A DNA stretch of 59,478 bases from a virus (taxonomy: Duplodnaviria; Caudoviricetes), in the IMG/VR virus record IMGVR_UViG_3300031857_000194, positions 1 through 59,478 of that record; one strand, given 5' to 3'. Positions within the stretch are counted from its first letter, which is position 1. Every line of letters begins with the position of its first letter. Below the pieces are notes generated by a model. The model made no database searches. It worked only from the letters and a program-made list of their open reading frames with translations, and was not told the DNA's origin. The translations under genes were made by a program, and so were the position numbers. Below, piece by piece: positions 11,201-43,829 of this stretch.

Positions 11201-14103
11201 TTGGCGACCTGAGCCGCGTTTACGATGGAGTTGTCCCGCACACGGTTGGACTGGCACGCGAGCGTCATCGTGCCCGGTATCGCGGTGAGCGGCGCGGTTG
11301 GGGGTGTGAAGTTCGCGGTGTACACCGCGGTTCCTTTCACAAATCGCAGGTTGGAGATGTACCCGTAGAAGTACTCCCTGAGTGTGTTTGTTTGGGCGCC
11401 AATGACGGGGTTGTTGCCGTTGGAGGTGTTCATCACCGTGTCGGCGAAGCTGGTGCTCGCCGCGATCGTGCCACCGGCTACTTTTTTACCGTCCACGTAC
11501 AGGCTTATGTTTGTCGCGCTGTCCCTGGTGACGACCACGTGGTGCCACTGGTTCAGACGTATCACCCCCGCCGGGGCTGATATTGTTGTTACTGCTTGGT
11601 TGGTGGCTCTGAGCTGGCAGTTAAACGTGCCCGTTGAGCTCACTATGTACGGGTAAATAATATCAACGACTGTCGTGTAGTAGTGCCAAATGCCCTGCGC
11701 CGTGGCGCTGGAGTTGACGGTGTAAATCCACGACTCCCAGGTGAACAAGCCAGTGCCAATCCCGTACGTCAGCGCGGTTGGGGTTGTGGAGATGTAGTCC
11801 CCGCTGCCGTCGAAGTACGTGGACCAGGCCTGCACGGGCGGGGTGGTGTAGTTTATGGGGCTGTTGTTGAATGGGTTGGCAAATGTGAGCGTGTAGGCAT
11901 TACCGTTGACCGTGATCGGGAACGCGTTCGGGCTGTTGTCGATGAATGTGCTGGATTGGCAGGTCAGCAGTACTGTTCCAGAGATTGCGGTCAGCGGAGC
12001 GGTGGGTACGGGCAAGGTTGAGATAGTTGCGTCGTATCCGGATGGCAGTGCTCCTTTTGTCATCCGGTAGTTACTTATATATCCCAATATTGGGTTACCG
12101 CTGCGGGCCCGGCCGATGTCAAGATTGTTGTCTGAATTTATGTCCGTTGTGCAGGCGGTCGATGACGCGGCACCCACACCGTTTAAGTACAACCTGATGA
12201 CGCCGGAGTTTCTTACTACGGCGACGTGGTTCCACGAGTCGACCGCCAGAGTTCCGCCGGTTATGGCTCTGGCGCCGGCGTCTATCCACTCAAACTCAAG
12301 TCTCAGTGAAGGATTGACATAGAACACGTAACCATCTATGCCCACGGTTCCTTTGGCACCGAAACCTTGGTTTGCCCCGTTTGTGCTTGTAATGTATACC
12401 CAGCACTCTATGCAAAAACTGTCGGTATTGGGATCCAGAGCAGCGTTGTTGGCTATGGTTAAGTAATCTGTACCATCAAAAGCCCCCGACCAGTCGGTCA
12501 TGCCAAACGGGTTCGTTGGCACGGGCCGCGCGTTGCCGTTTGTGGTGACCGCGAAGGCGTTGGTTGAGTTGTCGATGAACTGGCTGTTCTGGCAGGTCAG
12601 CAGCGAGGTGTTTGCGATTGCGGTCAGCGGGGTTATTGGCACGGTGAAGTTCGCGGTGTAGACCGCTGTACCTTTGACAACTCTTGCGCTGCTTATGTAA
12701 CCATTAAGATCACCATTCCAATAAGATCCTACTTTTGTTAGCGTTGTGTCAAGGTTTATTGTTGCCGATGATGAGTACGAGGCCTCTTCTTGTCCATTTA
12801 CAAAAAGGCGCATCGTTGAACCTGATCGTGTGATAGCGACATGGTACCACTGACCAGAATCTATTGTAGTCGAAGATTGCAAAACCGGGGTTGTGCCGGT
12901 CAGGATGTTGTAAGCAAAAAAACTTAATTTTGTTGGGCCTGAGCTGTGCCCAAAGATAAGTGCTGTGGCGGTTCCGGAGAAGCTGCCAGCCCCGTTTGCT
13001 ATAAGTCCCTGCGCGACCCCCGAAGTCGCGTTGTTCATTAAGAAAAACATCTCAATTGTGAAGTCTCCGGTCAGATCAAGCTGAGCAGAGGACGGGACGC
13101 TAACATAGTCTCCCGTGCCATCAAAATACCCCGAATAGTACCCTTCAGTTTGCGCGGTGCCCCCGCCGTAGTTAAAGGGAGTGAAGTTACCCTGTGTGGT
13201 GTTGCCGTTCCGGGTGATGGCGAAGTTGTTGGTTGAACTGTCCAAGAAAGTGTTGTTCTGCGCGCCGTTGGTTGAGCTGCTGTTGATCAGCAGAGTATTG
13301 TAGGGCCAGTAGGGATAGTCTTGGGCGGTGGTTTTGGGGTTGAATCCCAGTTCAGCCACAGTGGCACCGTTGCCAAACGGCAGATAGAATCCGTTGACAC
13401 CATATGAACCAGCATAGGTCAAGGGTATGAGCTGACCTGTGGCCGTGTCAGTTTCGGTAAAAGCTGCAGGAGTCAGTGCCTGACCGTCTACAAAGTTCAC
13501 GTCGGCTAGGTACCCACCAAAGTTAATGCTCTGCTGAAGATCGCGGCCGATGGCGTGTACGGATCCTGCGGCGTTGATTGAAAGTTGCGCGAACTGCGCG
13601 GGGTTGTTACTAGTTGAGAACGCGGTGATCTGGGTGCCGTTAACGTATAGTTTGATTCTATCGGCGGCTGTGCTCTGCGTTGTATCAACCGCGCAAAGTA
13701 TGTGGTACCACTGCGAGGGATCACGAAAAACCTGAGTTGTTACTCGGTAGACTGTGAACCACAATTGAAGACCCAACGTGTCAGCAATCCCGTTTGATCC
13801 AAACGTTAGCGCAAGAAATGTTGAGTCTGAGGCTCCGTTTGGTGTGCCGAATAGCTCTTGGTACGTGTTTCCTAACACGCTGCGCTTTACCCAACCGCTC
13901 CACGTCCAAGTTGTTCTGCTGCCCTGTAAGGTTGGAATGTACGAGAAGTACGCGGTGTCCGCCGGGTTGAAGCGCACGCTGCTGCTGACCTGCAAGGGAG
14001 TGGGCCCAGGTGGATTGGGATTGGGATTGGCGCCAAACCCCAGGATCTGCATGTTGCGTATGACGCCGCCTCTGATGATACCGTTGAAATTAAAGTTTGC
14101 CAT
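8263..14103 (-). CDS. Large tail fibre/adhesin with multiple LamG (ConA-like) domains, a SPRY-like domain and a C-terminal domain
   Basis: Repeated FDG.GDY...FTIE.W...W.H.A..R...GYIS..R..KG units; SGKWYAE...GDVIGVALDLDAG (SPRY-like). Confidence 0.85.
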   Translation of the reverse strand: MANFNFNGIIRGGVIRNMQILGFGANPNPNPPGPTPLQVSSSVRFNPADTAYFSYIPTLQGSRTTWTWSGWVKRSVLGNTYQELFGTPNGASDSTFLALTFGSNGIADTLGLQLWFTVYRVTTQVFRDPSQWYHILCAVDTTQSTAADRIKLYVNGTQITAFSTSNNPAQFAQLSINAAGSVHAIGRDLQQSINFGGYLADVNFVDGQALTPAAFTETDTATGQLIPLTYAGSYGVNGFYLPFGNGATVAELGFNPKTTAQDYPYWPYNTLLINSSSTNGAQNNTFLDSSTNNFAITRNGNTTQGNFTPFNYGGGTAQTEGYYSGYFDGTGDYVSVPSSAQLDLTGDFTIEMFFLMNNATSGVAQGLIANGAGSFSGTATALIFGHSSGPTKLSFFAYNILTGTTPVLQSSTTIDSGQWYHVAITRSGSTMRLFVNGQEEASYSSSATINLDTTLTKVGSYWNGDLNGYISSARVVKGTAVYTANFTVPITPLTAIANTSLLTCQNSQFIDNSTNAFAVTTNGNARPVPTNPFGMTDWSGAFDGTDYLTIANNAALDPNTDSFCIECWVYITSTNGANQGFGAKGTVGIDGYVFYVNPSLRLEFEWIDAGARAITGGTLAVDSWNHVAVVRNSGVIRLYLNGVGAASSTACTTDINSDNNLDIGRARSGNPILGYISNYRMTKGALPSGYDATISTLPVPTAPLTAISGTVLLTCQSSTFIDNSPNAFPITVNGNAYTLTFANPFNNSPINYTTPPVQAWSTYFDGSGDYISTTPTALTYGIGTGLFTWESWIYTVNSSATAQGIWHYYTTVVDIIYPYIVSSTGTFNCQLRATNQAVTTISAPAGVIRLNQWHHVVVTRDSATNISLYVDGKKVAGGTIAASTSFADTVMNTSNGNNPVIGAQTNTLREYFYGYISNLRFVKGTAVYTANFTPPTAPLTAIPGTMTLACQSNRVRDNSIVNAAQVANGNTAISPVSPFIPTQAWSAASYGGSMYLDGTGDNLLIPSSSALDLPGDFTIECWVNFSALSTNRMIIDRWSSGVNGGWQLYWRGTGTSITFWVNAAVVVQDPSTTRIQVGAWNHIAVVRSGTTCSLYINGEFVDSGTLSLSLSPANLPLCVGEQYSTLVNDLNGYVSGVRILKGTALYTSSFVPPVLPPTAIANTALLLNATNSGIYDAAGENVIETVGNAQVSTAVKKWGDSSVAFDGTGDYLVIPSTNAPTQFGSQDFTIEAWVYSTSIGNQQIIISNRIAASGNTNYDWQIFTSKLIFSTTSTNICVGVITLSSNTWYHVAVSRVSGTTRQFVNGVLDVTSTTSYNLTSNSSTVIGGNGTYQPTTYPFVGYIQDLRVTKGAGRYQGAFTPPAAAFAYNQYDISNQQWTPTNISVTAGTGQDNLSDSPSDYGTDTGAGGEVRGNYATLNPLNNGSESTLSNGALDISWSATAGHSAGSTIAVSSGKWYAEFTRGSSQTLIGIIPSTFSGKLTNWPGNADYGTNSYGYFSNNGNKYNNSSPSAYGASYATGDVIGVALDLDAGTLVFYKNGVSQGVAYSSITGSYIFAIGYGAAPTGGTVASANFGQRAFAYAAPTGFKCLVSTNLPTPTIGATSTTQASDYVDLELWTGTGANRSITGFGFAPDFVWIKGRSQVTNSFLFDILRGATNRLCSSLTVAQASEPNTLTAFNSDGFSLGTDAGVGACNLSGQTYVGWCWKANGAGSTNTDGSITSTVSANTTSGCSVVTWTGNGTNGATIGHGLGVAPVFTIIKSISGINSWYNWHQNLSGNNYGLSLNTTDAQAIFSFGNLGTKTSTTLQLVTGPSGADNVNLNGRTYVAYCFAAVAGYSAFGSYTGNGSADGPFVYLGFRPTIVLYKRIDSTSDWWIMDRERTAPYNIVNGFLYPNSSAAEGVADGLDFLSNGFKVRRAGTTDTNASGGTYIYAAFAEFPFKYARAR
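12485..12514. repeat. Dispersed repeat shared between LamG genes (copy at 39110-39139)
   Basis: CCCGACCAGTCGGTCATGCC[A/G]AACGGGTTC, 29/30 identical, encodes NPFGMTDWSG. Confidence 0.85.
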
Positions 14104-14105
14104 GA

Positions 14106-14312
14106 TTATTTGTTTTTGTTTCGCCCAGACTTCATGTTAGCGCACCAGTGATACATTTTAGCACGTTCCCCTGATGATTTTTTAGCACGTTGACGCAGAT
14201 CTGTGACCGAGCCAGAGCATGATGCACCTGCACGTTTGACACGCCCTGGTCTGCTGCGGCCCTTGATCTTGCCATCAGCAAAGTTTTCTGTGATGAATTC
14301 ATGTGCTCTCAT
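14106..14312 (-). CDS. Small basic putative internal head protein
   Basis: MRAHEFITE leader (compare T4 IP leader MKTYQEFIAE); Arg/Lys-rich with two Cys. Confidence 0.8.
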   Translation of the reverse strand: MRAHEFITENFADGKIKGRSRPGRVKRAGASCSGSVTDLRQRAKKSSGERAKMYHWCANMKSGRNKNK

Positions 14313-15421
14313 CGTGCTGTGGCCACCAATCTAATGTCTCTAGCAACTTTGGCCATGTCTCTGCCTTGTGCAGCAGCAGCGGGCACAGCATACATTTCTT
14401 CGTCCTCAGCACCGATGTTTAAGACTTCGCCAGTGGCTGTGTCGAAGCCATGCACTTCAATGCCGGGCATCTGCTCCAAGCGTTGCCACACACGCTGTCC
14501 ACCGGGACTTTGTTTGCGATCCGATACCAGGGTTAGGCCTAGATCAGTTATGAGCCTGCGATAAAAATCTGCTGCTGGTATGGTGTTGTCAGGACTGGCA
14601 TACAGGCCCGACACAATGAAACTGTCGGCGTTGCCAGGATAACGACTGCCAAACACCGTGAGTGTGGAGCGATTGGTCGCAGTGTTGAAAAGATTGTAGG
14701 TGATCTGTCCACCAAACTGATCACGATACACGCTGTGGGTTTTGTCTATGTCCAAGACCTTGCGGCCCAACAATGACATTTTTTCAGGCGAGATCTTGCC
14801 ACCGCGATTGGGCAGTTGATCTGGATTGGCACCTTTGCCTTTGACTTTGGAAAGTATTTGCACTTCCTGGATACCTTGTCCACTGTATTGCCGGTAAAGG
14901 TCCACATACCGCTGGACATCTTGTTCCCAGCCTCGGGGATCGCGATTCTTGTACTGTAGGCCCAGACTCATGGCATAGGCTTCTGAGGCACTGAGCCATG
15001 AACCAGGTTCCTTATGATCGGCCATGCGGGTCAGCACTCGGCGTGTCTGTGGATCTAGTCGTTCCAGTCGATAAGGATCTATACCTTCCCGGACACCTTG
15101 TTCCCACACATTACTATCGGGTCGATGTTTGGCCCAAAAGCCTGCACCGGCGTCGGTCTGCTGGCCACTCCTGCGTATGCGATATCCCTGGCTTTTGACA
15201 TAGTCATACATGGCAGCAGCTATGCCTTGGCCACGATAGCGTTCATCCACTTCCAGATCCTGTGGCATCAACTCACCGTCGTAGTCAATGAACAGCACTG
15301 AACCCAAGGGCCGGCCTCCCGCTGATGCTCGCACCATGATCTCATCTTCTTCTCGTTCCAAGCTCATGTCTATGCCTTGGAATGAGTCTTGGCCTATGAT
15401 GTCCTGTGGTAGCATGATCAA
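14309..15421 (-). CDS. GNAT acetyltransferase-containing polyprotein
   Basis: DLEVDERYRGQGIAAAMY acetyl-CoA motif A; second GNAT-like module (LVSDRKQSPGGQRVWQRL) after QGIQE; start uncertain. Confidence 0.75.
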   Translation of the reverse strand: MIMLPQDIIGQDSFQGIDMSLEREEDEIMVRASAGGRPLGSVLFIDYDGELMPQDLEVDERYRGQGIAAAMYDYVKSQGYRIRRSGQQTDAGAGFWAKHRPDSNVWEQGVREGIDPYRLERLDPQTRRVLTRMADHKEPGSWLSASEAYAMSLGLQYKNRDPRGWEQDVQRYVDLYRQYSGQGIQEVQILSKVKGKGANPDQLPNRGGKISPEKMSLLGRKVLDIDKTHSVYRDQFGGQITYNLFNTATNRSTLTVFGSRYPGNADSFIVSGLYASPDNTIPAADFYRRLITDLGLTLVSDRKQSPGGQRVWQRLEQMPGIEVHGFDTATGEVLNIGAEDEEMYAVPAAAAQGRDMAKVARDIRLVATAR

Positions 15422-17835
15422 TCCAACTGACTGGCCAATTGCTGATACAAAGCCAGTTTTTTATCGGCGCTCATGGCCATCCAACGCTGCATCCAATCAC
15501 TCGTGGGTCTTGTGCCCAAGGCATCTTTGATCAGGTCGCTGATGCTCTGATCCATTTCTTGTTCAGTGGGTCCAGAGGCTTCTGTCACGCTTTGTAATTG
15601 TTGTTGTGTGGCTCGAAGGTTGGGATTATTAGGGTTGGCTGTGTGCCGAACACCGGTGGCAGTACGTTGTGTAGTTCCCCCTGTTGAACTGGCAGTATTG
15701 GGCCCAGTGAGATTTTTTACCATACTGCCAAATCGGCTGGAATCCATTCCGGCCTGTGGCAATGCTGCAGATTTCGATGCCACTTGAGCAGGTGCAGTTC
15801 CAGCCTGTGGCGGTGCTGTAGTTCTCTGTGCTGTGGGAGCAGGTGCAGTTCTCGGTGCAGGTAGTTGCATTTGTTTCCAAACACCGGCCAAGACATTTTT
15901 GTCCACACCTTGCTTGACCAACAAAGCAAAAATCTGATCGCTGTCAGTGGGCGAACCTGCGGCTTTCCATGCTGTTGACAGTTTGTCAGCAGTGATCTTG
16001 GTGGTGATGTTTTGACCCACTTGCGCCACTTTGCCAGCGATGGCTTGACCGGCCTGTGAGGCCTTGCCTTTTAGATAATCCCATACTCCTTCTTCCACAC
16101 GCTGGAACATTTCCCGTATCTGTTGTGGAGTGATGGACTCCGCGGTGGTTTGTGGCCGGCTTGCAACACCAGAACCCGCTGCAGCTCCTTGGCTCAGTGA
16201 TTGCCCGGCCTGCGCCAATCCGTTGATCCATTGTGTTAACCCATCATTGGCGATTTGGTCCGCTCTGGCGTTGCGTGCTATGTCTAAAATCGCAGATCTG
16301 TAATCTGCGGAGTTAATTTCTCTAGAGATAGTTCTCAGTGTGTCATAGCCTCCGGCTTGCCCATCTCTAATCATGCGGAGAGCTTCCTCTATCGCGGATT
16401 TTTCTTCCGGAAACACTATTACATTGAATCCCTTCAGAGTCTGTTTCCATTCGGAACCGGGTCCGGTCAGAGTTTTGGTAGCATGGAATGACACGTCTTC
16501 TAGCCCGGCATCTTTAGGACCAAATGGTATTGAATCTGCTCGCATACCTGACACAAACTGGCCCAGCATCTCAAATGCTTTGCCTGATAGATAGCCCAGT
16601 GCTGCTGTCTTAACGCCCTTGCCCACAGCAGTGGAAAGCTTTTCACCTTTGAGCAATTCAGCGGTGCCACGCAGGATCTGGCCAGCGATGGCGCCTCCAG
16701 CAGGACCAGCACCCAAGGCAGCGATGGTAGTGAGCACACCCACGATGGCTGCTGTCTTGCCAGGATTGGCCTTTGCCCACTCGCCCAACTGCGACACACT
16801 ACGACCCAGTTGAGGAAACTTCTGTGCGATGTTGCCTTTGAGATTTTCAAACTTTTGGTCAAAGGCCTGTACAGGAGCAGTATTTTGTAACCATTTTCCT
16901 ACATTGTCGATTGCTCGGTTTACAGCACCGGCGGCATCCATGCCTTTGCCCACCAAGGTACGGTTGCCACCAGCGTCTGTGGCTGCTTGTTGTGTGGCTG
17001 TAAACAGTTGATTGATCTGTTGTGGATTCAAAGCCACTTCCAGCACAGGCCGGAACTCGTTGTAGATGCCTTCGACGATGCGTCGTTGTTGGACCGTGAG
17101 TCCTTGGCAGGATTCTGTAAGGATCTTGTGGCGGGGTTGTGCAATTTCTGTGACTTTCATCTTGATAATTTTACTTTCCGTTACGCCCATCTGGCGCGGC
17201 CCCACTGTGCCCAGTTTTCGGCCACCGAGGGCCATGACAGACTCGCGCCCGGAGTAATTCATGGTGTGGACCACATTGAAACCTGAGTCGGGCATGGCCC
17301 AGACCTCGATACCGTCTTCGGGGTCTCGAAAGATTTTGACTTTTTCTTTAGCATACTGCACAGCTTCTTGTTTGGTTTTGAACTGACTGGTAAACTTAGC
17401 TTCCGTGACACCTTGCGACATTTTTTGTTTAAGTGTTTGTATCTTTTGTTGATAAAATTTGCATTTCTCGTCGTCACCCGCACGATTGGCTGCTAAAGCA
17501 AGTTCTTCAAACTTTGATATTTTCTTTCTAATATCAGAGGAGCCTTCTGACAGATCATCGTCGTCAAATGGCAAGTACCAGAACCAGTTTTCAAATCCGC
17601 CAGGATTGGTATCATAGTCCATGTGTGCGGCGTTGCGAGCAGCATTCAACATATTTTTGAATATTGCCACAGCGTTATTTTCCACTGCCACTGCTTTCAA
17701 CGCTTGATACAGTTGTTCAGCACCAGCAGCATCTTTGTGTCGTTGGATCTTGGGAGCCAGTCGGTGATACACATCAGCAAATTCGCTGTGTAGTTCTCCC
17801 ATGCGGCTTTCGACTAATATTTCTGTGACTTTCAT
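15418..17835 (-). CDS. Putative internal/ejection polyprotein with hydrophobic Gly-zipper segment
   Basis: MKVTEILVE leader; LSE/VTE/LTE/VEE sites; TAAIVGVLTTIAALGAGPAGGAIAG segment. Confidence 0.75.
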   Translation of the reverse strand: MKVTEILVESRMGELHSEFADVYHRLAPKIQRHKDAAGAEQLYQALKAVAVENNAVAIFKNMLNAARNAAHMDYDTNPGGFENWFWYLPFDDDDLSEGSSDIRKKISKFEELALAANRAGDDEKCKFYQQKIQTLKQKMSQGVTEAKFTSQFKTKQEAVQYAKEKVKIFRDPEDGIEVWAMPDSGFNVVHTMNYSGRESVMALGGRKLGTVGPRQMGVTESKIIKMKVTEIAQPRHKILTESCQGLTVQQRRIVEGIYNEFRPVLEVALNPQQINQLFTATQQAATDAGGNRTLVGKGMDAAGAVNRAIDNVGKWLQNTAPVQAFDQKFENLKGNIAQKFPQLGRSVSQLGEWAKANPGKTAAIVGVLTTIAALGAGPAGGAIAGQILRGTAELLKGEKLSTAVGKGVKTAALGYLSGKAFEMLGQFVSGMRADSIPFGPKDAGLEDVSFHATKTLTGPGSEWKQTLKGFNVIVFPEEKSAIEEALRMIRDGQAGGYDTLRTISREINSADYRSAILDIARNARADQIANDGLTQWINGLAQAGQSLSQGAAAGSGVASRPQTTAESITPQQIREMFQRVEEGVWDYLKGKASQAGQAIAGKVAQVGQNITTKITADKLSTAWKAAGSPTDSDQIFALLVKQGVDKNVLAGVWKQMQLPAPRTAPAPTAQRTTAPPQAGTAPAQVASKSAALPQAGMDSSRFGSMVKNLTGPNTASSTGGTTQRTATGVRHTANPNNPNLRATQQQLQSVTEASGPTEQEMDQSISDLIKDALGTRPTSDWMQRWMAMSADKKLALYQQLASQLD

Positions 17836-18461: not shown

Positions 18462-21400
18462 TTATCTCATCTCCGGTACGACTTCTAATTCTACACCTAC
18501 TAGATCCGGTCTGTTGCGCCCCATCCATCCGGCGGCGAATCTATTGGCGTCGGTCTGGCTGTTGCCTATGCCACCAAATGTATGCACCACTTCATTGGTG
18601 TTGGCATTGCGTATCTGCCACCGACCAGTGAACTCGCCTTGTGATCGTTGTGCTGCATACTGGGCGATCAATCGGTCTGCTTGTTGATTTACATTAGGCT
18701 GGGCCTGCACGGGTTCGGCTTCGATGCTGGTGATCCTGCGGCGCTGTGCTTGCAGTGCTGAACGCACCGAATCCATGGCAGCATCAGCATTAGGGGCATC
18801 AACACTGAGGCTGTCTGTGACTTGTTCACCATTGCGAGTTTCACTCCAACTCACGCGATAGCGTTGTGTGTCCGCCGCTCTCAAGCGTGTTTGTAAATCC
18901 TGCTGATCCTGCCGATTATCTTTTTGCTGTTGCTGATACTGTCGCACTTCTGCGGCTGAGGCTGGTTCGGCTAGGAAACTGTCGGGATCATTTCGGCGGA
19001 GTTCGAGCCAATGTTTGTCCTGCCGTTCAGCTTCGGCCTTGGCCAGTGCAGTATTTTCAGCGGCCACCAGCAAGGTCCGACCGCTGTCTGTGTCAGTGAT
19101 GCGCCAGATGGTGGGACGATCCACGATCTTTTTTGCCACCTGTGCTCTACGGCTCAGTGGCTTTTCAGGTTCCACTTCGGATTTCTCCCGCGTGGTGAAA
19201 TCAAATCCTTGTCCGCTATATTTGACCAAGGCAGTTTCGTTGGCCGAGTCCAGGTTGTAATCTTTTATGACATCAATGACTTCACCAGTGTCAGTGTTGA
19301 TCACTTCGTATTCTTTAGCAGCCGCAAGGCTGCGCGGGGGTGGCACTTCCTTGGCCAGAACCTGCCGAGCCCACGACTTCTTTAGTTCTTCGGGTGTGAT
19401 CATACCTGCGCTGTATCGGGCAAACAATTCTAGTGCATCCTTGGCACCTTCTGTTTCAACATCGGCTTTGATTTTGGCGCCTTTGTCGGATCGGGAGTAC
19501 TGGGTTTCACGGTATCCGCTCAACAGTTTGTACAGTTTCTTGCCATACTCTTGGCGCTCCAGTTCGGGTCTGCTGGCTATGTACATGGCTCTAGCAAAAC
19601 GCAGCATGGTATCTTCCAGTGCGCCCACTTCTTCGTCGCCTTTGGCCAGATAATCGCCGCCCGGTGAGCGAAACTCGATGTAGCCATCTTTGATATGTGC
19701 CGAAGTGTATTTGTCACGGCCCACCCCATCTCTCACCATGTCGGCAGCCAACTCTATGAGATTCTTTTTCATGAGATCCATGGCAGCGGCTGTTTTCTCT
19801 GCGCCAGACATTTTTGCTGGCGAACTATCCCAGCCTGTGACTTCCTGCTCCTGCATTTGATTTCTACGGCTGCGCTGCACATCCTGCAGTTTGCCCAGAG
19901 CCGAACGTGCGTAACTGTTGGCTGAACGTCCAAAACGTTCCAGCACATACTGATCACCCAGGAACATTATGAGTTTGACATAGTCCACTGCGCCACCCTT
20001 GAAAGGCACGCTCACGCCCATGTGTAAACCAGTTGACGAGTTGGTGTAGGCATCGCCGTCGCTGTTGGCCCAGTCTATAACAGTCTGCAGAGATTCCAGC
20101 GCCTGCTTGAGTGGCATGGGTGGTGATACCACTTCCAGTCCTGTTTCGTCGCTGGGATCGTCGGGATCTAGGCTGCCATCAGGCTCGATGATCCAAAGCC
20201 CGGGCTTTCTTGACACGCTGTGATAGCCCGTGCTGCCACGCACTTGTGCATCACCGCCCAGGGCTTGGCGTAAACTGTCAGCGATGTCGTCCACAGTGCG
20301 ATCGCCACCGCTGGTTTCACCGCCACGCCAGTAGGGCCAGTCTAAACCAAACTCACTGCCAACGTCACTCATGTATCGATATTCTTGTTCCAACCAGTCA
20401 CTTTCATCGTAGTCGCTGCTGTCTCTGGTGGTGTCAAAATAATCGTCTCTGGCTTGATCAAAACGATCATCTTCGGTATCCACACTGGTTTCCACATCTG
20501 CCCGATACAGTTCTCTGGCCAGGGCTTCAATCTTTTCTGATTGTTCCTCGGACTCTTCACTGGTGTCTATGCCCAGTTCTTCCGCAGCACGCTCTCTGTA
20601 GTTGTCCTGCTCCTCGGGCCATACATTCTCATCATAGTAGTCACGCACGATCTGATCTGCGTTTTGGTTCCAGCCTTCGGCGATCTGTTCATCTCGCCAT
20701 TCGTAGAAAGATTCCCGCATTTCTTGCTGCAATCTATTAGCAGACGATCTGCCGATGCCGTTGTCGCCGCCTTGGAAAAAATCCACCACCCCATCTATGC
20801 TGTAGGCACGCTCGTCCATGTCATAGTCAGCTTCGTAGTCTTCTTCCTCGCCTTCGCCGGCATCACGGAAGATGAGTTCGGCTTCAAAGCCTGCTTGTAT
20901 GCCCTCGGCTTCGTCGGAATCGGCCCACTTCTTGAGTTCACCTGGGCTCATCTTGACTTCCAAGAGATCTTCACTGTCCTGTGATTCTGCTGTGATGCCA
21001 CGTGCCCAATCGTCGGGTGTGACGCCGTATTTGGCCACCCACTGATCGTGCAACTTTTGAGGTGTGATATCATATCGTCGGGATATGGTTTGCATGACGT
21101 GATCTATGTTGTCATAGTTGGGATTTTCCAACTGTTTCACACCTTTGGCCAGATCATCCAGGTACTTTTCACGCTGATAACTTTCTGCTATGTCTGTGAA
21201 TATTTTGTCGTGCTGTCGACCGTAATCAACCATGACACGTCCGGCCACGGTGTTGGCATCGGCTTCCACTCTAGCCAACTCTTGGCTGTTCATGTCGTGA
21301 TGCGCTGTGCCATCAATAAACTGTTTCACGTGCTGCAGTTCATGTGTGTAGGTACGCAACACATCTGCTAGATATCTGTCGCCAACGTAAACATAAACTT

Positions 21401-22676
21401 CACTGTCATCGGCTGTGTTCTTCCACTGCGTGACACCAAATGTGTTGTGATCTCGGGCCCAGGATCTATCGCTGGTAAAGGTGACTGGTGGTACTTGTTC
21501 GGGCTTCAGCGCCAATGATCTTAATATATCGGGTATGGCACGATTGATCTCCGAACTCAACCGGCTGTCCACGCCACGGAATGTGACACGGCCTTCGGTC
21601 AATTTACCGTTGGTTTTAGCCTTAGGAGGCACGCCAGCACGAGAGATTTTGAATCCCAACTGCTGAGCTGCTTTTTTCAAACTGTCGGGTCGGACGTCTA
21701 CTGTGAGTGCGTTGCTGAATCTGGGATCATTTCGTTCTGCTTGGGAAGGAATATAACCCGAAGCTGCTTCCTTCAAAGGCTCGTCCCCGAATCCCCAACG
21801 AAACTCCGTCATGATTTCCATGCCTGTCACACGCTTGATCAAATCCCATACGTCTCTTTGCTGGCCTTGCTTGATCAGTTGGCCCAGCAACTTTTTCTGC
21901 TCGGCAGTGGCCTTGCGATAAAACTCGTTCAGTTCCATGATGCCAATATTGCCGGCATAGGCAGCTTCTTCTATGCTGAGTTCTTCGCTCTTGGCCTGAT
22001 CACGTGCCTGCATCAATTGTCGGATCAATCCACGATTGCGCAGTAGTTTGAACACTAGATTTTCTGCAGAAAATTCCCCGGCACGATCTAGACCGGCCTT
22101 TCTCATGCGTTTGATTTTGTCCAGCAGCAGGGACAATCGATCATATTCAGGATTTTTCACAGCCTGTTCTATGGCGTGGCCCAGTTTTTTGTATTTGGAC
22201 TGCACTGTGTTGTCGTCTATGGGCACTCGCTGCCGGCGTGGCATTTTCTGCCACTGATCACGAGAAAGGGAATAGACACCAGCACTGTGATGCTGATCAG
22301 CTGCGCCCTGCACATACAATTCCACATCAGAATCTTTTACCTTGATATTATATCGATCATTGTACAGGCTTTTTTTGGCGTCAAACAATTCACGATACAC
22401 TTCGTCGTTGTCCAATCGCTTCATGTCAATGATCAGGTGCAGATCAATGTCGGAATAGGGTGTGTAGGTATAGCCTGCGTTGCTGCCACTGACGGTGATG
22501 TCATCTATCTGTGAGGAATTTAATCCAAGATATTCTCTAAAATCATCGGCTATGCGCAGCAGGGCTCGGCGCACATCGGGTTTGAGTTGATCCCCGTCAA
22601 ACAATTGGGGATTGAGATCTTGATGCAGCTGCACAGCATCCTTGAGACTGTACTGTTCTAATTCCGTGATATCCAT
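18462..22676 (-). CDS. 1404-aa polyprotein: Pol-beta-type nucleotidyltransferase, HExxH metallopeptidase and putative amidoligase (COOH-NH2 ligase type 2)
   Basis: VSGSNA..YSDIDLH (GS..DxD); THELQHVKQ; GFEAE...EPDGSL...GLEVVSP...NSSTGLHMGVS...KY...YIEFRSPGG. Confidence 0.8.
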   Translation of the reverse strand: MDITELEQYSLKDAVQLHQDLNPQLFDGDQLKPDVRRALLRIADDFREYLGLNSSQIDDITVSGSNAGYTYTPYSDIDLHLIIDMKRLDNDEVYRELFDAKKSLYNDRYNIKVKDSDVELYVQGAADQHHSAGVYSLSRDQWQKMPRRQRVPIDDNTVQSKYKKLGHAIEQAVKNPEYDRLSLLLDKIKRMRKAGLDRAGEFSAENLVFKLLRNRGLIRQLMQARDQAKSEELSIEEAAYAGNIGIMELNEFYRKATAEQKKLLGQLIKQGQQRDVWDLIKRVTGMEIMTEFRWGFGDEPLKEAASGYIPSQAERNDPRFSNALTVDVRPDSLKKAAQQLGFKISRAGVPPKAKTNGKLTEGRVTFRGVDSRLSSEINRAIPDILRSLALKPEQVPPVTFTSDRSWARDHNTFGVTQWKNTADDSEVYVYVGDRYLADVLRTYTHELQHVKQFIDGTAHHDMNSQELARVEADANTVAGRVMVDYGRQHDKIFTDIAESYQREKYLDDLAKGVKQLENPNYDNIDHVMQTISRRYDITPQKLHDQWVAKYGVTPDDWARGITAESQDSEDLLEVKMSPGELKKWADSDEAEGIQAGFEAELIFRDAGEGEEEDYEADYDMDERAYSIDGVVDFFQGGDNGIGRSSANRLQQEMRESFYEWRDEQIAEGWNQNADQIVRDYYDENVWPEEQDNYRERAAEELGIDTSEESEEQSEKIEALARELYRADVETSVDTEDDRFDQARDDYFDTTRDSSDYDESDWLEQEYRYMSDVGSEFGLDWPYWRGGETSGGDRTVDDIADSLRQALGGDAQVRGSTGYHSVSRKPGLWIIEPDGSLDPDDPSDETGLEVVSPPMPLKQALESLQTVIDWANSDGDAYTNSSTGLHMGVSVPFKGGAVDYVKLIMFLGDQYVLERFGRSANSYARSALGKLQDVQRSRRNQMQEQEVTGWDSSPAKMSGAEKTAAAMDLMKKNLIELAADMVRDGVGRDKYTSAHIKDGYIEFRSPGGDYLAKGDEEVGALEDTMLRFARAMYIASRPELERQEYGKKLYKLLSGYRETQYSRSDKGAKIKADVETEGAKDALELFARYSAGMITPEELKKSWARQVLAKEVPPPRSLAAAKEYEVINTDTGEVIDVIKDYNLDSANETALVKYSGQGFDFTTREKSEVEPEKPLSRRAQVAKKIVDRPTIWRITDTDSGRTLLVAAENTALAKAEAERQDKHWLELRRNDPDSFLAEPASAAEVRQYQQQQKDNRQDQQDLQTRLRAADTQRYRVSWSETRNGEQVTDSLSVDAPNADAAMDSVRSALQAQRRRITSIEAEPVQAQPNVNQQADRLIAQYAAQRSQGEFTGRWQIRNANTNEVVHTFGGIGNSQTDANRFAAGWMGRNRPDLVGVELEVVPEMR

Positions 22677-22683
22677 GATTTAA

Positions 22684-22689
22684 TATTTA
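22684..22689 (-). promoter_or_regulatory. Late-type promoter box TAAATA
   Basis: CTAAATA 7 nt upstream of ATG 22676, just downstream of a terminator. Confidence 0.65.
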
Positions 22690-22714
22690 GCAGTTTTTCC
22701 ACTAGGCACAAGCC

Positions 22715-22746
22715 AAAAAAATAGCGCAGTATTATCTGCGCTATTT
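22715..22746 (-). terminator. Intrinsic terminator
   Basis: AAATAGCGCAG-6 nt-CTGCGCTATTT inverted repeat followed by a T run on the minus strand. Confidence 0.8.
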
Positions 22747-24325: not shown

Positions 24326-24970
24326 TTATTTATTGTTCACACCCATGGCCGCAGCCACGGTTTCAAAATAATCCCGACCTGCCACTCGGAGATTGGGATC
24401 TACCCCAGTGGCACGGAAAAATCCTTCGCGATCGCCTGCAGTGACCATGGCACGAACATCGGTACTGCGTAGATTGGGATCACCCGCAATGCCCTCAGCA
24501 TCCTGTGCTTCAGGCGTGCCACCATCTGAGAATGAGTCAAAATTGTAAACTGCCCGTAATGGCTGGCCTTTGGTATTCACCTGCTTGCCATTTGTCACCA
24601 TTGGAAAACGCATGGCTTCTTCGCCGGCGCCGTACATGACCACAGCATTCTTGTAGCCTTTTTTATTCAAATATTCGGCAGCAAAATCACTCATGGGTAC
24701 AGCAGGATCCATGACAAAATGATCACGATCCTGTGGCAATATTGCCCGCCACCAGGCCAATTTTTCAGCACCTGTCAAAGGATTTTTTTCAGGATCACTA
24801 TCGCGAGGACTAATAAACAGATACCAGTCAGCATTCAATTCACCGGCCTTTCTTTTCAAGGCATTGATCAGTCGCTGATGTCCAGCATTGGGCGGATTAA
24901 ATCTACCAAATGCGTATACCACTGTGTCTTTGTTGCCACGTGTGTTTTCAAACAATTCAAATAATAACAT
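24326..24970 (-). CDS. HIGH-superfamily nucleotidyltransferase (cytidylyltransferase-like)
   Basis: YAFGRFNPPNAGH, KNPL, RSTDVR; MLLFELFE leader. Confidence 0.8.
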   Translation of the reverse strand: MLLFELFENTRGNKDTVVYAFGRFNPPNAGHQRLINALKRKAGELNADWYLFISPRDSDPEKNPLTGAEKLAWWRAILPQDRDHFVMDPAVPMSDFAAEYLNKKGYKNAVVMYGAGEEAMRFPMVTNGKQVNTKGQPLRAVYNFDSFSDGGTPEAQDAEGIAGDPNLRSTDVRAMVTAGDREGFFRATGVDPNLRVAGRDYFETVAAAMGVNNK

Positions 24971-26136
24971 TATCTAGGTTGCCAATCGCTGCGTTTGATA
25001 TATTTAACAAATTGTCCAGGAATGGCATATTGGTAACCACCAGGATCGGGCTGGGCAAATCCTTCGGGGTTGTCCTGGCGTATGATGCTGTGTTGCTGTA
25101 TGCCTGTTAGCCACTGATCCAGCACTGAATCTTTGATTTTTTGCAGTTGTTCCACAGCACCCAGTGTGGCTGTGAGTCCTGCTGAATCGCTGAGCATGAC
25201 GTCGGCTTGTTTGGCGCTGAGATTTTGTTTGGCCCAGACCGGAAATGACTGGGTCAAATCAGCGAATTTGGTGGCACGCTGATCACCCATGAACTTGTAA
25301 ATCACTGAACCAGGACTTTTAAGGCCCGGTTTGGGCGATAGATAATTGTCCAACACTGTGCGATTTTTTAGTATGCTCTGCTCAAGTGCAGCCAGAGCAC
25401 GATCCATTTCAGGATCCAGCACAGGCACAGTTTCCACATACAGCGGCCCTTGCACTATCAGGCCAGGTGTGTGATTCATGGCGTCGATTTGATCTGTGCT
25501 GAGTCGCTGTTCATCTGTGCTGCCCAGTTCGGGATAGTATCCTGTAATGGCCACACCAGCAGTGGCATTTTCTATACGCTCACCCAGTCTGCTGTCCTGG
25601 CGCACATAAAATCTCGTGACGTTGGGCTGGAATGTGTATTCACCACGGGCAGCAATGGCAGGTTTCTCAGGATAGAACAACAATCCACCTTCCACAAATC
25701 CACGGAAATCGCTGGGAGTAGCACGCTCAAATACCGAATACAATTGGCTCATGCCTTGTGCATATTGATTGCGCTGTGCTTGTTGTTCTGGGGTATCCGC
25801 ACGACCTGTGCCGGCAATAAACTTTTTTACTGCTGACGCACTGGACATTTCGGTACTGACACCGTCAGCGGTTTTATTTTTGCCACGCTGCTGATACATC
25901 CAGGCATTTTTGGGAAAGAAATAAAATTTGCCCTCATCGTCTCTGCCCCAAAAGAACACCGGAGATCCATCCCACTTCACTTCCACCTGCTGATATTCTG
26001 TGGGCAGTCTGCGCAGTCGTTCTATGGCGTGCAAGGCACCTTGGCTGCCGTTGGTATACACAAGGTCTTCCAAGTGTTGATATTTGCGACCTATGTCTGG
26101 CATGGCCGCTTCTACAAGGAACTGGCGGCTCAGCAT
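24970..26136 (-). CDS. Conserved phage protein with KxDG ligase-like motif (DUF6267-like)
   Basis: HLEDLV...VKWDGSP...EGGLLF...FQPN...EGF...VK; start re-called at MLSRQFLVE. Confidence 0.7.
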   Translation of the reverse strand: MLSRQFLVEAAMPDIGRKYQHLEDLVYTNGSQGALHAIERLRRLPTEYQQVEVKWDGSPVFFWGRDDEGKFYFFPKNAWMYQQRGKNKTADGVSTEMSSASAVKKFIAGTGRADTPEQQAQRNQYAQGMSQLYSVFERATPSDFRGFVEGGLLFYPEKPAIAARGEYTFQPNVTRFYVRQDSRLGERIENATAGVAITGYYPELGSTDEQRLSTDQIDAMNHTPGLIVQGPLYVETVPVLDPEMDRALAALEQSILKNRTVLDNYLSPKPGLKSPGSVIYKFMGDQRATKFADLTQSFPVWAKQNLSAKQADVMLSDSAGLTATLGAVEQLQKIKDSVLDQWLTGIQQHSIIRQDNPEGFAQPDPGGYQYAIPGQFVKYIKRSDWQPR

Positions 26137-26138
26137 GA

Positions 26139-27746
26139 TCAGTAACTTATGGTAATCTTGTTGATCACACCGCTGGAGAAATCTTTTACGCGGCAGCGCA
26201 GCCAAGTAAAGTTACCCAAGAGATTCAGCGCTGACACTCCGGTGTAAGCAGGTATGGGAATGTTGCCACCGGCTATCTCTCTGATTTCTATCACATCGTT
26301 GGGCTGTGGCGTCCAGTCAAATACCAAGGTGTTCACATAGGTATTGGTGTTGCTGTTGCCCGAACTGGTGAGTACATAACTGCCAAGATTGGGGAATAAT
26401 AAATTTGCATTGCCACCTTGCCAGGCTGTGTTGCTGTTGGCAACTGCACCAAAATCCAAAGACAAGCGATTGGGATCACCGTTGCTGTCCACAGTGATGT
26501 TGCGCACCACTGCACCTTGGGCAATGTAAATGTTGCTGTTGTATGCAGAACTGTTGCCGCCAATCACATTCACATTCACGTTGCTGTTTAGCGGAGGCAG
26601 TTGTTCAAAGTCAAGCTTGGGATCAACAAATCTAAATATCAAATTAGCACCGGTTACAGGGCTTTCATCAGCCAGCACAGCGAAACAATGCAGGGGCGAA
26701 GTGTTGGCGTTGCTGCCTGTGCGTGGCAAGGGAATCTGCAGTATGCCATTCACAGATACCAGTACACTTTCACTGGTATAAGTGGCTGAATCATTGTTCA
26801 ACACAAAGGTGTTGCTCAAGCCGTTGGCCACTATGGTCTGGCTGGAGAAGTTGCTGGTAGCGATGGGCTCGTAGAATTCTCTCACTGCCACTGTGGCATT
26901 GGCCGGCAGTGCATCGTTGAATACCAAGGTGCTGCCCACGGTGGTATATGCTCCGCCTATGGCATTGGAACCTGGAACTTGTATGATACCGTTCACGCTG
27001 ACCACCAGTTGATCAGCCGGATACTGTCCGTTGAGCACAAATGATTTGGTGGTGCCCACGCTGTTGCTGTACACGGGCCAGGTCAGTGTGCCTGAGCTGT
27101 TGGGACCTGCGTACCAGTTGCCGGGTGCTGTGGCATACTGTACCACAACATTGGCAGCATCGGGTATGCCCACGATTATGGGTGTGCCATCAAAACTGTT
27201 GTTGTTGGCATCTGAAGCATTGACCAAAATCTCTGTGCCAATCTGCAGTGCTGAAATGGTGGGACCGTAGGTGAATCGCACTTCGGTGCCCGACTGATAA
27301 AACACGTTGCCGATGTTGCTGCCTGCTGCGGCAGCATTGGTATAGCCGGAATTGAATATCTGCGACTCTACCATGAGCGCTGGCACATTGGCAGTTTTTT
27401 GTAAAAAGGTATTCTGTCCAAGACCCGTTACTTCTGCGATCTTGAACCAGGGATAGTTGGTGGCCAAAGGATCCAACAAACTGCTGTCAGGGTCGGACTC
27501 CAAGGTGCCTTCAAATATGAGATTGCCTACAAAATTGGTACAGTAGTAGGCCACTGTTTGTAAGCCGCCCGGGCTACGATAATAACTGGCTGCTTTCACA
27601 GGATCGCCGGCCCAGTTGTTGGCAGTGTTGGCGTTGTAGTTGGGATAACCTGGATTGTAACTGGGGTTGTTGTTAGCGGCCGCAGTGGCATTCCAATAGT
27701 TACCGTAACTAACCGTTGGGATTAGTATCTGCCCCGATGTGCGCAT
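26139..27746 (-). CDS. Virion structural protein
   Basis: N/G/T-rich beta protein with repeated VSVNGIxQ units and C-terminal GNFTWLR. Confidence 0.7.
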   Translation of the reverse strand: MRTSGQILIPTVSYGNYWNATAAANNNPSYNPGYPNYNANTANNWAGDPVKAASYYRSPGGLQTVAYYCTNFVGNLIFEGTLESDPDSSLLDPLATNYPWFKIAEVTGLGQNTFLQKTANVPALMVESQIFNSGYTNAAAAGSNIGNVFYQSGTEVRFTYGPTISALQIGTEILVNASDANNNSFDGTPIIVGIPDAANVVVQYATAPGNWYAGPNSSGTLTWPVYSNSVGTTKSFVLNGQYPADQLVVSVNGIIQVPGSNAIGGAYTTVGSTLVFNDALPANATVAVREFYEPIATSNFSSQTIVANGLSNTFVLNNDSATYTSESVLVSVNGILQIPLPRTGSNANTSPLHCFAVLADESPVTGANLIFRFVDPKLDFEQLPPLNSNVNVNVIGGNSSAYNSNIYIAQGAVVRNITVDSNGDPNRLSLDFGAVANSNTAWQGGNANLLFPNLGSYVLTSSGNSNTNTYVNTLVFDWTPQPNDVIEIREIAGGNIPIPAYTGVSALNLLGNFTWLRCRVKDFSSGVINKITISY

Positions 27747-27926: not shown

Positions 27927-28631
27927 TTAGCGTGGCTCAATACGATATGTCTTTCTTAGCAGTCCAGGGAATGACATTTCAAACAGCATCTGTATATGCG
28001 GGTTGCTGGTATCAATGAACATATTGCTGGTCATCCAGCGGCGCCGCTGCCCCGTCATACGCTGTTGTAGACTAGGGCCCAGCCTGATTTCTTCTGAGTA
28101 ATTTTCGCAGAATTTTATCAGTTTTTCCACCACGGGCTCTTCCAGCCAGCGTTCTCGAAAATAGTGCCTTAATGTGTGCTCGGGATCTTTGAGTTGGATC
28201 ACGTCGGGTTCATGTGTGAGTTCAGCAGTGACCAGTTTCACGTGTTGTAGCTGTTGCCAGAACTTCTGTTCCTGCAGCCGGTGATAATCATTGGTGTAGA
28301 TCTGCAGCCAGTTGTCGTACAATACCACTTTGTCCTGATCATTGGATTCCAACCAGTCCAGGCATTCGTGCAAGGCCAGGACGTCATCAGCAGAAAAACT
28401 CTTGCCGGGACGAGTACGATTACCACGCCAGGACCCACCATAATTTATGTTACGCTTGAGTATCTGATCTCTGAATTCTATGTTTTCATCCAGGGTGCTG
28501 TGATCCCTCACACGGCCCAGTCTGGGCGACCTCAGCACTGCTGCTTCAAAAAGATAAGCAGAGATACTGTAGCGATAGCGGTTGTAAAACAGTGAACCGC
28601 GGGGTTGGGATTTAGACTCTAATAAGTCCAT
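27927..28631 (-). CDS. Hypothetical protein
   Basis: 234-aa ORF overlapping the end of clpA; start uncertain. Confidence 0.65.
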   Translation of the reverse strand: MDLLESKSQPRGSLFYNRYRYSISAYLFEAAVLRSPRLGRVRDHSTLDENIEFRDQILKRNINYGGSWRGNRTRPGKSFSADDVLALHECLDWLESNDQDKVVLYDNWLQIYTNDYHRLQEQKFWQQLQHVKLVTAELTHEPDVIQLKDPEHTLRHYFRERWLEEPVVEKLIKFCENYSEEIRLGPSLQQRMTGQRRRWMTSNMFIDTSNPHIQMLFEMSFPGLLRKTYRIEPR

Positions 28632-30879
28632 TGGTATCCACAGATCCTATCAAGTTGCTGGTAATGTCAAAGGTCACAGAATCTCCAACATAATCGGCCA
28701 TGATTTCACAGTTCATGAGATCATCAAACAGGATCTTGCGGCTAAGCGGCACACGAACTAGTTCATCGATTTTGCGGCTCAAGGGTCTAGCACCCATTTT
28801 GGCATCATAGCCTTTGTCTGCCAGGTGATCGATCAAGGCTTCCGAGAAGTTGATGCGAATGTTTTTGGGAGCCATGGCCTGTTGCAGTTGCTTGAGGAAT
28901 TTCAGCACGATACGCTTGATGGCCAGGGTATCCAGTTTCTGGAATTTACATATGGCATCAATACGATTGCGTATCTCAGGTTTGAAATAGTCTTTGAGTG
29001 CGCGATCTTCTTCGCCAGACTTGGCCAAGGCCACTCCAAAGCCAATGGCGTTGTTGTCATTGTCTCGAGCGCCCAGGTTGCTGGTCATGATGATGATGGT
29101 ATTTTTACAAGACACTTTCTTGCCATTGCTGCCAGTCACAGTGCCTTCGTCCAGCATCTGTAGCAAGATGTTGGACACATCAGGGTGCGCTTTTTCAATC
29201 TCATCAAACAAGATCACTGAATAGGGACTCTTGCTAAGATCATTGATGAGTTTGCCGCCGCCCAGGCTGTGATCTTCATAGCCCACATATCCTGGAGGCG
29301 CTCCAATTAGTGTTGACAGATTGTGCTTTTCTTGGAATTCGCTCATGTCATAGCGCAACAGTCGCATATCCAGTGCGTCACTGAGTGCCTTGGCCAGTTC
29401 GGTTTTGCCTGTGCCCGTGGGTCCAAGGAACAGGAACGATGCCAAGGGCCTGGTATCAACATTGATGCCAGCAAAAGAAACAAATATGCGATCGATCACG
29501 GGATCTATCACTTGATCCTGACCAAACAGCCGATCTTTCACAGTTTCAGCCAAACGCTTGATCTTGTCTGTGGTCTTGCTGGCCAGTTTGTCTCGCGGTA
29601 TGTCTGTAAATTTAGCGCAGGCAGTGATGATGTCTTCACGCAAGACCACAGCACCTTCAGCATCATTCACACGATAACCTGCACAGGCAGCATCCAACAG
29701 GTCAATGCTTTTGTCGGGATTTTTACGATCAGTGATATATCGATCACTCAGTTCCACTGCGGCCTTCACAGCATCTCTGTCGATCTGCACTGAGTGGAAT
29801 GTTTCCAGCCTGGGCTGCAGGCCTGTCAAGATATTTTCCGTATGCTCTGTGCTGGGTTCGTCTATGGCCACTTTGTAGAATCTACGCATGAGTGCGCGAT
29901 CCTTTTCAAATGACTCATAGTATTCTTCCCAAGTGGTACAAGCGATCACCTTCAAGTTGCCTTTGGTTATGGCAGGCTTGATCATGTTGGCCAGGTCCAT
30001 GCTGGAGTTGTTGGCAGCGCCTGCGCCTTTCATGGCGTGTGCTTCATCAATGAACAATATGCAGTTGTCTTTGGCTGCCAAGGCACTGAGCACGGCCTTG
30101 ACTTTTTCTTCAAAGTCTCCGCGATATTTGCTGCCTGCCAACACATCCGCAATGCTCATAGACCACACTTCGTGATTCTGCACAAACTTGGGCACTTCGC
30201 CTGCGATCACGGCCTGCGCCAGGCCTTCCACTATGGCAGTTTTGCCCACACCAGGATCGCCTACCAGCAACACGTTGCTTTTGAAACGCTTGGCCAGCAC
30301 AGTGATCATTTCTTTGAGTTCTGTGGCGCGACCTATCACGGGTTCATACTTGCCGGCTTCGGCCAGTGCAGTCATGTTGATGCAGTACTCTTCCAGTATT
30401 TCTGTGGCCTGCTTTCGGCCCAGTTTGGGTTCGCGCTGTTTGTGATGATGTCCTTGCCAGTACTCTACAAATTCTTGTTTGATCAGTCCATACTTGGAGA
30501 AAAAGTAGTGTGCGTGGCAGTTGTTTTCGCTCATGATGGACAGATACAGATCAATGGGTATCAGGAACCTGCGATTGCTGAACACCACCTGTGTCACAGC
30601 ACGATTGATCATGCGCTCGAGACCGTTGGTCTTTTTGGGCACAAACTCTTCGGGATCAACCGATTCCAACTCTAGACTTTTCATTGACTGTAGATAGGCT
30701 TCGATGTCGGCATCCAGGCTTTCAATGTCCACGCCAAAGTCCCGCGTTTGATTACGGAATTCTTGATTGCGTATCAGTGCCAACGCCACGTGTTCTAGCG
30801 TGACATATTCGTGACGCATATCAATGGCCAAGTCTCGCGCCATGTCGATGATGCTTTCAACTTCGGGATTATACTGCAT
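28612..30879 (-). CDS. clpA: ClpA-like AAA+ chaperone
   Basis: Clp N domain; two Walker A motifs (GDPGVGKT, GPTGTGKT); FIDEAH, FDEIEKAH, GARPL; no long ClpB middle domain. Confidence 0.9.
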   Translation of the reverse strand: MQYNPEVESIIDMARDLAIDMRHEYVTLEHVALALIRNQEFRNQTRDFGVDIESLDADIEAYLQSMKSLELESVDPEEFVPKKTNGLERMINRAVTQVVFSNRRFLIPIDLYLSIMSENNCHAHYFFSKYGLIKQEFVEYWQGHHHKQREPKLGRKQATEILEEYCINMTALAEAGKYEPVIGRATELKEMITVLAKRFKSNVLLVGDPGVGKTAIVEGLAQAVIAGEVPKFVQNHEVWSMSIADVLAGSKYRGDFEEKVKAVLSALAAKDNCILFIDEAHAMKGAGAANNSSMDLANMIKPAITKGNLKVIACTTWEEYYESFEKDRALMRRFYKVAIDEPSTEHTENILTGLQPRLETFHSVQIDRDAVKAAVELSDRYITDRKNPDKSIDLLDAACAGYRVNDAEGAVVLREDIITACAKFTDIPRDKLASKTTDKIKRLAETVKDRLFGQDQVIDPVIDRIFVSFAGINVDTRPLASFLFLGPTGTGKTELAKALSDALDMRLLRYDMSEFQEKHNLSTLIGAPPGYVGYEDHSLGGGKLINDLSKSPYSVILFDEIEKAHPDVSNILLQMLDEGTVTGSNGKKVSCKNTIIIMTSNLGARDNDNNAIGFGVALAKSGEEDRALKDYFKPEIRNRIDAICKFQKLDTLAIKRIVLKFLKQLQQAMAPKNIRINFSEALIDHLADKGYDAKMGARPLSRKIDELVRVPLSRKILFDDLMNCEIMADYVGDSVTFDITSNLIGSVDTNGLIRV

Positions 30880-43766: not shown

Positions 43767-43829
43767 TTGAATTCTCCTTTGTGTTGTGCTCCTGCACAAG
43801 ACTATTTACAATAAACTGCGCGGTTTATT

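Follow-up and report, generated by a model that had tools for sequence, protein, structure and literature searches.

In bacteriophage T4, the ADP-ribosyltransferase Alt and the internal proteins IPI-III become part of the prohead core, where the Peptidase S77 prohead protease gp21 trims them before they are injected with the DNA (PMC9958956, PMC5694885, PMC12991175, PMC10229621). This protease degrades the core as well as trimming IPI-III and Alt (PMC9958956), its preference being to cut after the glutamate of I/LxE (PMC12991175); Alt is cut at ITE-6 and LTE-619 (PMC5694885), and a targeting sequence of 10 amino acids (aa) is stripped from IPIII (PMC10229621). The ejection proteins of phiKZ-like giant phages (SPN3US gp245, phiKZ gp175 substrates) are likewise found inside the head and enter the host, and a prohead protease related to that of T4 cuts them after the glutamate of a three-residue motif, but in their case the motif is A/S-x-E, and propeptides are removed from single proteins (PMC5694885). 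The polyvalent proteins described by Iyer, Burroughs, Anand, de Souza and Aravind in 2017 have several conflict-type domains per polypeptide, including Pol-beta nucleotidyltransferases (NTases) and the zincin MPTase, and delivery alongside the DNA, followed by cleavage into units, has been predicted for them, with the processing credited to the MPTase itself (PMC5512222). Here we analyse one gene in a stretch of 59,478 bases (hereafter 'the window', the whole of the Caudoviricetes virus record IMGVR_UViG_3300031857_000194, positions 1 to 59,478), the 1404 aa product of which is, in our judgement, somewhat more probably than otherwise a head-packaged polyvalent effector polyprotein of an uncultured T4-related jumbo phage, cut at the joints between its modules by a gp21-type head protease.

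The likeness to T4 extends to the head genes, as its relatives encode a protease of this family and have a gp23-type capsid gene close by, and this T4-type gp23/gp21 head module distinguishes the group from the phiKZ-like giants. However, the T4 cargo is encoded by separate genes and has short terminal propeptides, whereas here at least five unrelated modules lie in one gene with the sites inside it; the enzymes are an NTase, a zincin and an amidoligase rather than an ADP-ribosyltransferase, and an N-terminal tag of the T4 type, 10 aa long, was not demonstrated. The combination of these enzymes agrees with the definition of a polyvalent protein as a phage polypeptide having at least two unrelated enzyme domains, and delivery with the DNA followed by cleavage into units is proposed in both cases. 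The word 'amidoligase' does not occur in the main text of PMC5512222, in which no mention was met of [LIV]xE joints or of the SGYIP cassette described below, and the relevant parts of two other accounts discuss packaged effectors, not protease-jointed chains or this cassette (PMC7824862, PMC9503650). No description of the protease-jointed arrangement was found by full-text searches of the literature, although supplementary tables, which lie outside that search, may list such architectures.

The virus record is estimated to cover 17% of its genome, implying a phage of roughly 350 kb. The open reading frame (ORF) runs from ATG to stop on the minus strand; an earlier reading of this DNA, made from the sequence only, had named no strand, and translation of 18462-22676 on the plus strand is interrupted by stops throughout. 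All of the motifs which that sequence-only reading had listed (SIEE, PLKE, SGYIPS, KLTE, HExxH, DIAE and LLE) are present, and in the order given (Table 1). A word-seeded search, in which 7998 candidates were scored, returned 387 proteins at E<=1e-3, and many of the best 120 of these are on contigs of 200-350 kb. The phage collection contained no DNA near-identical to the query, and none of 48 records in the cultured-phage collection covered >=80% of the protein; the matches there were to pieces only, in that Synechococcus, Maribacter and Lak phages have the NTase as a gene of its own, and Ralstonia phage RsoM2USA has a match to the ligase core.

Modules, their borders and a head protease in relatives

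Local BLAST of the query against the best 120 of the 387 homologues divides the protein into four blocks: A (residues 1-237), B (~297-357), C (~380-496) and D (566-1404). Judged by motif, 102 of these 120 are arranged A-C-B-D, the A-B-C-D order being restricted to the query and four close relatives, whilst the remainder consist of D alone (six), A-B-D (five) or B-D (two). The distance between HExxH and GYIP ranges from 57 to 555 aa, and that between GYIP and the start of D from 69 to 913 aa (n=97), a variation indicating that whole modules have been inserted at the joints.

Block A was correctly recognised by the sequence-only reading as a nucleotidyltransferase. Its G-S...D-x-D motif lies at residues 64-78, and S63, G64, S65, D76, I77 and D78 are invariant in the NTase alignment, conforming to the family signature G-[SG]...D-x-[DE]. 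Residues 11-223 correspond to phrog_36119 (PHROGs, 1.1e-41); the Pfam match to PF01909 (NTP_transf_2), over residues 53-87, scores 14.3 bits, below the cut-off of 21, and some relatives carry precomputed PF01909. The remainder of the chain was studied with an AlphaFold2 model of residues 205-1404, built on 112 alignment rows and having a mean predicted local distance difference test (pLDDT) of 74.8 and a predicted template modelling score (pTM) of 0.39; the underlying alignment misplaces the SGYIP module of relatives onto the query's helical module, where the model is less reliable. Block C is modelled as a mixed alpha/beta module with HExxH on a helix (pLDDT 80-90). H445, E446, H449 and E471 are invariant in a 46-sequence alignment and lie on consecutive helices in the model, the zincin arrangement of an HExxH helix followed by a helix bearing the third ligand. 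Pfam matches among the 46 members were all sub-threshold (Peptidase_M78 in 29, DUF6782 in 22, Tox-MPTase3 in 17 and MPTase-PolyVal in 3), Peptidase_M78 being the best with a lowest E of 1.6e-4, and hence this module falls short of membership of a curated zincin family (M78/IrrE-N, SprT-like).

The claims that the protein contains an amidoligase-2, and that an acidic insert lies within it, also held. PF12224 scores 37.2 bits over residues 794-888 (cut-off 22), GFEAE, EPD and H885 are invariant columns, and the catalytic fold is glutamine-synthetase-like. The insert is confidently helical (pLDDT >90), between the first strand (residues 594-604) and the rest of the core. Foldseek comparison of the 1200-residue model with viral models gave 18 matches at E<=0.001, the strongest of which were 'Amidoligase enzyme' entries (1.4e-39); IrrE-N-like proteins were also among them (7.8e-6, and 7.6e-4 with TMt 0.75); there were none in the PDB at the same threshold. 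Hence the module resembles the Amidoligase_2 carboxylate-amine ligases of glutamine-synthetase fold, but unlike the known ones it is split after the first strand by a helical acidic insert of ~185 aa, continues into four small repeats at the C-terminus and is preceded by a protease-type site. As regards these repeats, which had also been proposed, four hairpin-plus-helix units are evident in the model (pLDDT 86-92), whereas self-BLAST detected none; in profile comparison R1 matched R4 at 92.6% (E 4.6e-7), with other pairs weaker (1-53%). Searches of PDB sequences with the NTase, the D region and the peptidase-module (C) profile found no match, and an NCBIfam search returned only one row, at chance level.

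The borders between these modules are marked by a recurrent tripeptide. In 119 homologues, with the query and its identical copy left out, S[LIVM]xE ends block A in 110 of 111 cases, [LIVM]xE is found at most 6 aa upstream of GYIP in 103/113, and it directly precedes V-K-M-S-P in all 115. The six proteins composed of D alone retain a leader of 19-25 aa ending exactly at this last site. When columns with [LIVM]xE in >=60% of rows were counted in a 112-sequence alignment, three at the joints were conserved (q235 in 103/103, q496 in 29/37 and q571 in 100/100, numbered by query residue); two further columns proved to be misalignment artefacts. The five sites named by the sequence-only reading lie in or at poorly ordered segments between domains, with conserved borders, where they would be accessible, rather than inside folded domains: SIEE is within the segment of pLDDT <50 at q228-243, that at q289-358 takes in PLKE and the SGYIP cassette in its entirety, and reaches the first residue of KLTE, q495-497 comprises the DIA of DIAE, and q563-573 ends in LLE. 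These low-confidence joints alternate with segments of pLDDT 80-95. The protein itself starts with a further candidate site, and M-x-[LIVM]-x-E begins 110 of the 111 NTase-bearing homologues; this may be a cut site, or simply the start of the first helix or a part of the NTase fold.

A protease of a family with matching preference is encoded by relatives of the phage. PF03420, the T4 gp21 family, was found above cut-off in nine of 12 related records (5/5 in one set and 4/5 in a second), amongst them all eight that are >=90% complete (316-364 kb), and these relatives carry a homologue of the polyprotein; the three records that lack it are incomplete, covering 17, 35 and 48% of a genome. In all five records examined for it, a gp23-type capsid gene (E about 1e-100) lies close to the protease gene, with an ORF of scaffold-like sequence directly upstream of the capsid gene, and the capsid N-terminus contains ELLE, ALLE, VLE and YLKE.

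The polyprotein gene is flanked by large tail and virion-type genes, and is preceded by a TAAATA box. Such boxes occur within 25 nucleotides (nt) upstream of eight of the 39 ORF starts in the window, compared with about 0.24 expected from the density of the hexamer; the starts concerned (8231, 17835, 22676, 24321, 24970, 33583, 43799 and 46858, all on the minus strand) are 3-25 nt from the box, which is often CTAAATA, and the leaders are very short, lacking an obvious Shine-Dalgarno sequence. One of these ORFs is a virion-structural gene. By analogy with the T4 late promoter, the box looks like a late-type promoter core, although the exact T4 octamer, TATAAATA, has no match in the window.

We therefore favour a scheme in which the polyprotein would be expressed late and assembled into the core of the prohead, where the gp21-type protease would cut after the joint glutamates, as happens to Alt and the internal proteins in T4. 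The enzymes so released would enter the next host together with the DNA, and there could nucleotidylate host targets, cleave them, or attach amino acids or peptides to them by ligation.

The SGYIP cassette

A profile of 55 SGYIP sequences, run against 1.84 billion representative proteins, matched 688 at E<=1e-3, of which 507 also reached E<=1e-10; the proteins are 78 to 2006 aa long. In 145 new proteins, containing 147 occurrences, [LIVM]xE was present at most 8 residues upstream in 124/147, and in 55/147 the cassette was no further than 75 residues from the C-terminus; where the chain continues, the cassette is often followed by G-K-[IL]-x-E, resembling the NGKLTE of the query. Among the 88 SGYIP proteins shorter than 1000 aa, Pfam matches at E<=0.001 were to NTP_transf_2 (six), ART-PolyVal and GNAT (four each), DUF5661, cytidine deaminase and Amidoligase_2 (three each), and SLT, NUDIX, ParB_N and ASCH (one each), the majority having no match. 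Of these domains, ART-PolyVal, GNAT, NTP_transf_2, deaminase, SLT, NUDIX and ParB_N are typical of injected effectors.

Each of five complete relatives has exactly one SGYIP match, always in the large protein, as does the window, which rules out a tag repeated across many genes of one phage. Hence the cassette is a constant element present once per genome, whilst the enzymes to which it is joined differ from phage to phage. Folded alone, it gave a mean pLDDT of 64.1 and a pTM of 0.35, with one helix and no confident globular domain, and an ESM Atlas search with this part returned no usable match. Tentatively, and with a probability that we would put well short of even, the cassette, which has candidate head-protease sites on either side, may be the constant heart of the family, acting as a detachable peptide for docking cargo to the capsid, or as a peptide released into the head. 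Were this so, the locus would be a plug-in cartridge, in which whatever enzyme lay between [LIV]xE joints would be loaded, cut free and injected; such an arrangement would differ both from the N-terminal tag of T4 and from MuF-anchored polyvalent proteins.

Evidence against cleavage by the head protease, and alternatives

Several observations weigh against the reading that we favour. The sequence-only reading had the junctions match [ILV]-x-E, and the borders do carry this motif, conserved in more than 100 relatives despite the shuffled module order; however, it is not enriched in the protein overall, with 14 copies compared with 20.7 expected from composition, so the case rests on where the copies are. 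The feature above chance is the positional conservation of [ILV]xE at module borders in the 119 homologues. Conserved [LIVM]xE columns also occur inside the folded D block, at q653 (92/111), q829 (111/111), q941 (54/60) and q973 (111/111), and in the model q829-831 is a confident strand, q653-655 a confident helix and q941-943 a low-confidence loop; conservation of the tripeptide alone is consequently not diagnostic. The junction copies differ from these ligase-internal ones in being conserved islands beside variable linkers. DIAE is conserved in only 29 of 37 aligned rows, and DSSP places it within a helix, at low confidence, whilst the helical module is followed in the query by I-T-A-E where relatives have V-x-E. 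No protease or capsid gene (PF03420, PF07068) was found in the window or in its closest large relative, G001 (92% identity, 48% complete), both of which are fragments; in another relative, G003, the polyprotein gene is ~155 kb from the head genes; and no MuF- or portal-type anchor, such as polyvalent proteins have, was seen. The proposal of the sequence-only reading that the head protease matures the chain is partly supported, by separate modules, conserved [ILV]xE borders in linkers and a gp21-type protease in every near-complete relative, but it has to contend with the absence of enrichment, the copies within the folded ligase and the embedded HExxH peptidase as a rival processor.

It is unlikely that the protein instead remains a large uncut multi-enzyme, packaged or not, in which [LIV]xE represents conserved helix ends or linker features. 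The joint motifs have stayed fixed while the modules adjoining them were swapped, reordered or lost, they stand out from the variable, low-confidence linkers next to them, and the stand-alone D forms keep a leader that stops exactly at the site. The absence of enrichment does favour an uncut chain, as do the copies inside folded parts, which show that structural conservation of the tripeptide is possible, and the virion RNA polymerase-type polyvalent proteins of N4 are reported to be carried at full length (PMC5512222).

Processing of the chain by the zincin embedded in it, whether acting in cis or on other copies in trans, in the capsid or after injection and with the head protease uninvolved, seems rather less probable again. 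Autoproteolysis by the MPTase has been proposed for polyvalent proteins (PMC5512222), and the HExxH and downstream glutamate module is kept in most members of the family. However, the same joint motif is found in the six D-only forms, which have no peptidase, and most of the 88 SGYIP proteins lacked any Pfam match at the threshold used; furthermore, the motif is the preference of a protease family that every near-complete relative encodes. Zincins are also not known to prefer glutamate at P1. Least probable of all is an unpackaged cytoplasmic enzyme, cut or not, modifying phage or host components through, for example, ligation or nucleotidylation: the distance of the gene from the head module in G003 and the metabolic-type neighbours in the window (GNAT, cytidylyltransferase-like, ligase-like) would suit it, but the late-type TAAATA box, the tail and virion structural genes around the polyprotein gene, and a domain repertoire matching that of head-packaged effectors (as in the Pfam scan of SGYIP proteins; PMC9503650) make it very doubtful.

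Features of the locus, its neighbours and implications

Table 1. Features of the polyprotein gene and its upstream region, in window coordinates.
Feature	Residues	Position	Strand	Remarks
Whole ORF		18462..22676	-	1404 aa + stop
Module A, Pol-beta-type nucleotidyltransferase	1-237	21966..22676	-	Ends S-I-E-E
N-terminus, M-D-I-T-E		22662..22676	-	I-x-E at residues 3-5, further candidate site
Junction SIEE	234-237	21966..21977	-	
Small three-helix module	238-300	21777..21965	-	Model pLDDT 70-86
Junction PLKE	300-303	21768..21779	-	
SGYIP cassette	304-361	21594..21767	-	55 aa; SGYIPS at 306-311; ends NGKLTE (junction KLTE, 358-361)
Zincin-like metallopeptidase module	362-498	21183..21593	-	HELQH at 445-449; ends DIAE (495-498)
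Helical module	499-565	20982..21182	-	phrog_10346, 1.7e-6; model pLDDT 57-86
Junction LLE	571-573	20958..20966	-	
Amidoligase, glutamine-synthetase fold	574-1110	19347..20957	-	Helical acidic insert at ~605-790
C-terminal region	1118-1404	18465..19325	-	Four beta-hairpin-plus-helix units
CTAAATA box		22684..22690	-	7 nt upstream of ATG; candidate T4-late-type -10 element
Hairpin of 8 bp and T-run		22715..22743	-	After upstream gene; terminator-like, read from sequence

The two smaller helical modules of the query are not confined to the polyprotein. A module homologous to residues 238-300 is found inside other genes of the relatives at loci L037 and L066, and the helical module (499-565) in other genes at nine relatives' loci; the loci having one or other of them in genes near the polyprotein are L011, L014, L032, L034, L037, L038, L040, L043 and L066. 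In these other genes the helical module is often followed by V-x-E (GVAE, RVTE, GVTE). Of the ~105 relatives listed as P0007-P0121, nearly all have a run of lysine and arginine directly after the S-L-x-E that ends the NTase, then an aromatic-glycine stretch resembling Y-G-F-G-G-Y-W-Y-P-G-Y, and then D-G-G-G-D-G-G-G. This segment is absent from the query and its close relatives.

Elsewhere in the window, three giant ORFs on the minus strand, at 8263-14103 (1946 aa), 36682-39969 (1095 aa) and 39981-42086 (701 aa), share repeated modules, with matches to the 'baseplate wedge / virion structural' families phrog_24074, phrog_3545 and phrog_13163. The downstream ORF at 15418-17835 (minus strand, 805 aa) matches neither Pfam nor PHROGs; its product begins M-K-V-T-E-I-L-V-E and is rich in V/L-T-E tripeptides (at 3, 7, 95, 143, 218, 228, 239 and beyond), and may be another protease-jointed cargo protein. 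Enzyme-like neighbours at 14309-15421, 24326-24970 and 24970-26205, all on the minus strand, are GNAT, cytidylyltransferase-like and DUF6267 proteins; the cytidylyltransferase-like one begins M-L-L-F-E-L-F-E, and the DUF6267 protein has a K-W-D-G motif, like the lysine motif of ligases. Also on the minus strand are a PstS-like phosphate-transporter subunit at 42756-43799 (phrog_5385, 4.3e-63) and a 755 aa AAA protein of the ATP-dependent-protease type at 28612-30879 (phrog_4871, 3.7e-235).

If the joints are genuine protease sites, up to about seven separate products of a single gene would enter the capsid and then the next host, and the paradigm of T4 Alt and the internal proteins would extend to a modular polyprotein. 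The sequence rule of [LIV]xE islands separating shuffled modules, in a phage that has an S77 protease, would then predict the injected proteome of uncultured jumbo phages, and the NTase, zincin and glutamine-synthetase-type ligase carried here would be candidates for activities in host take-over or counter-defence. Should the suggested role of the SGYIP cassette also be correct, the locus would represent a natural, evolvable protein-delivery system, for which the cassette could serve as a packaging handle.

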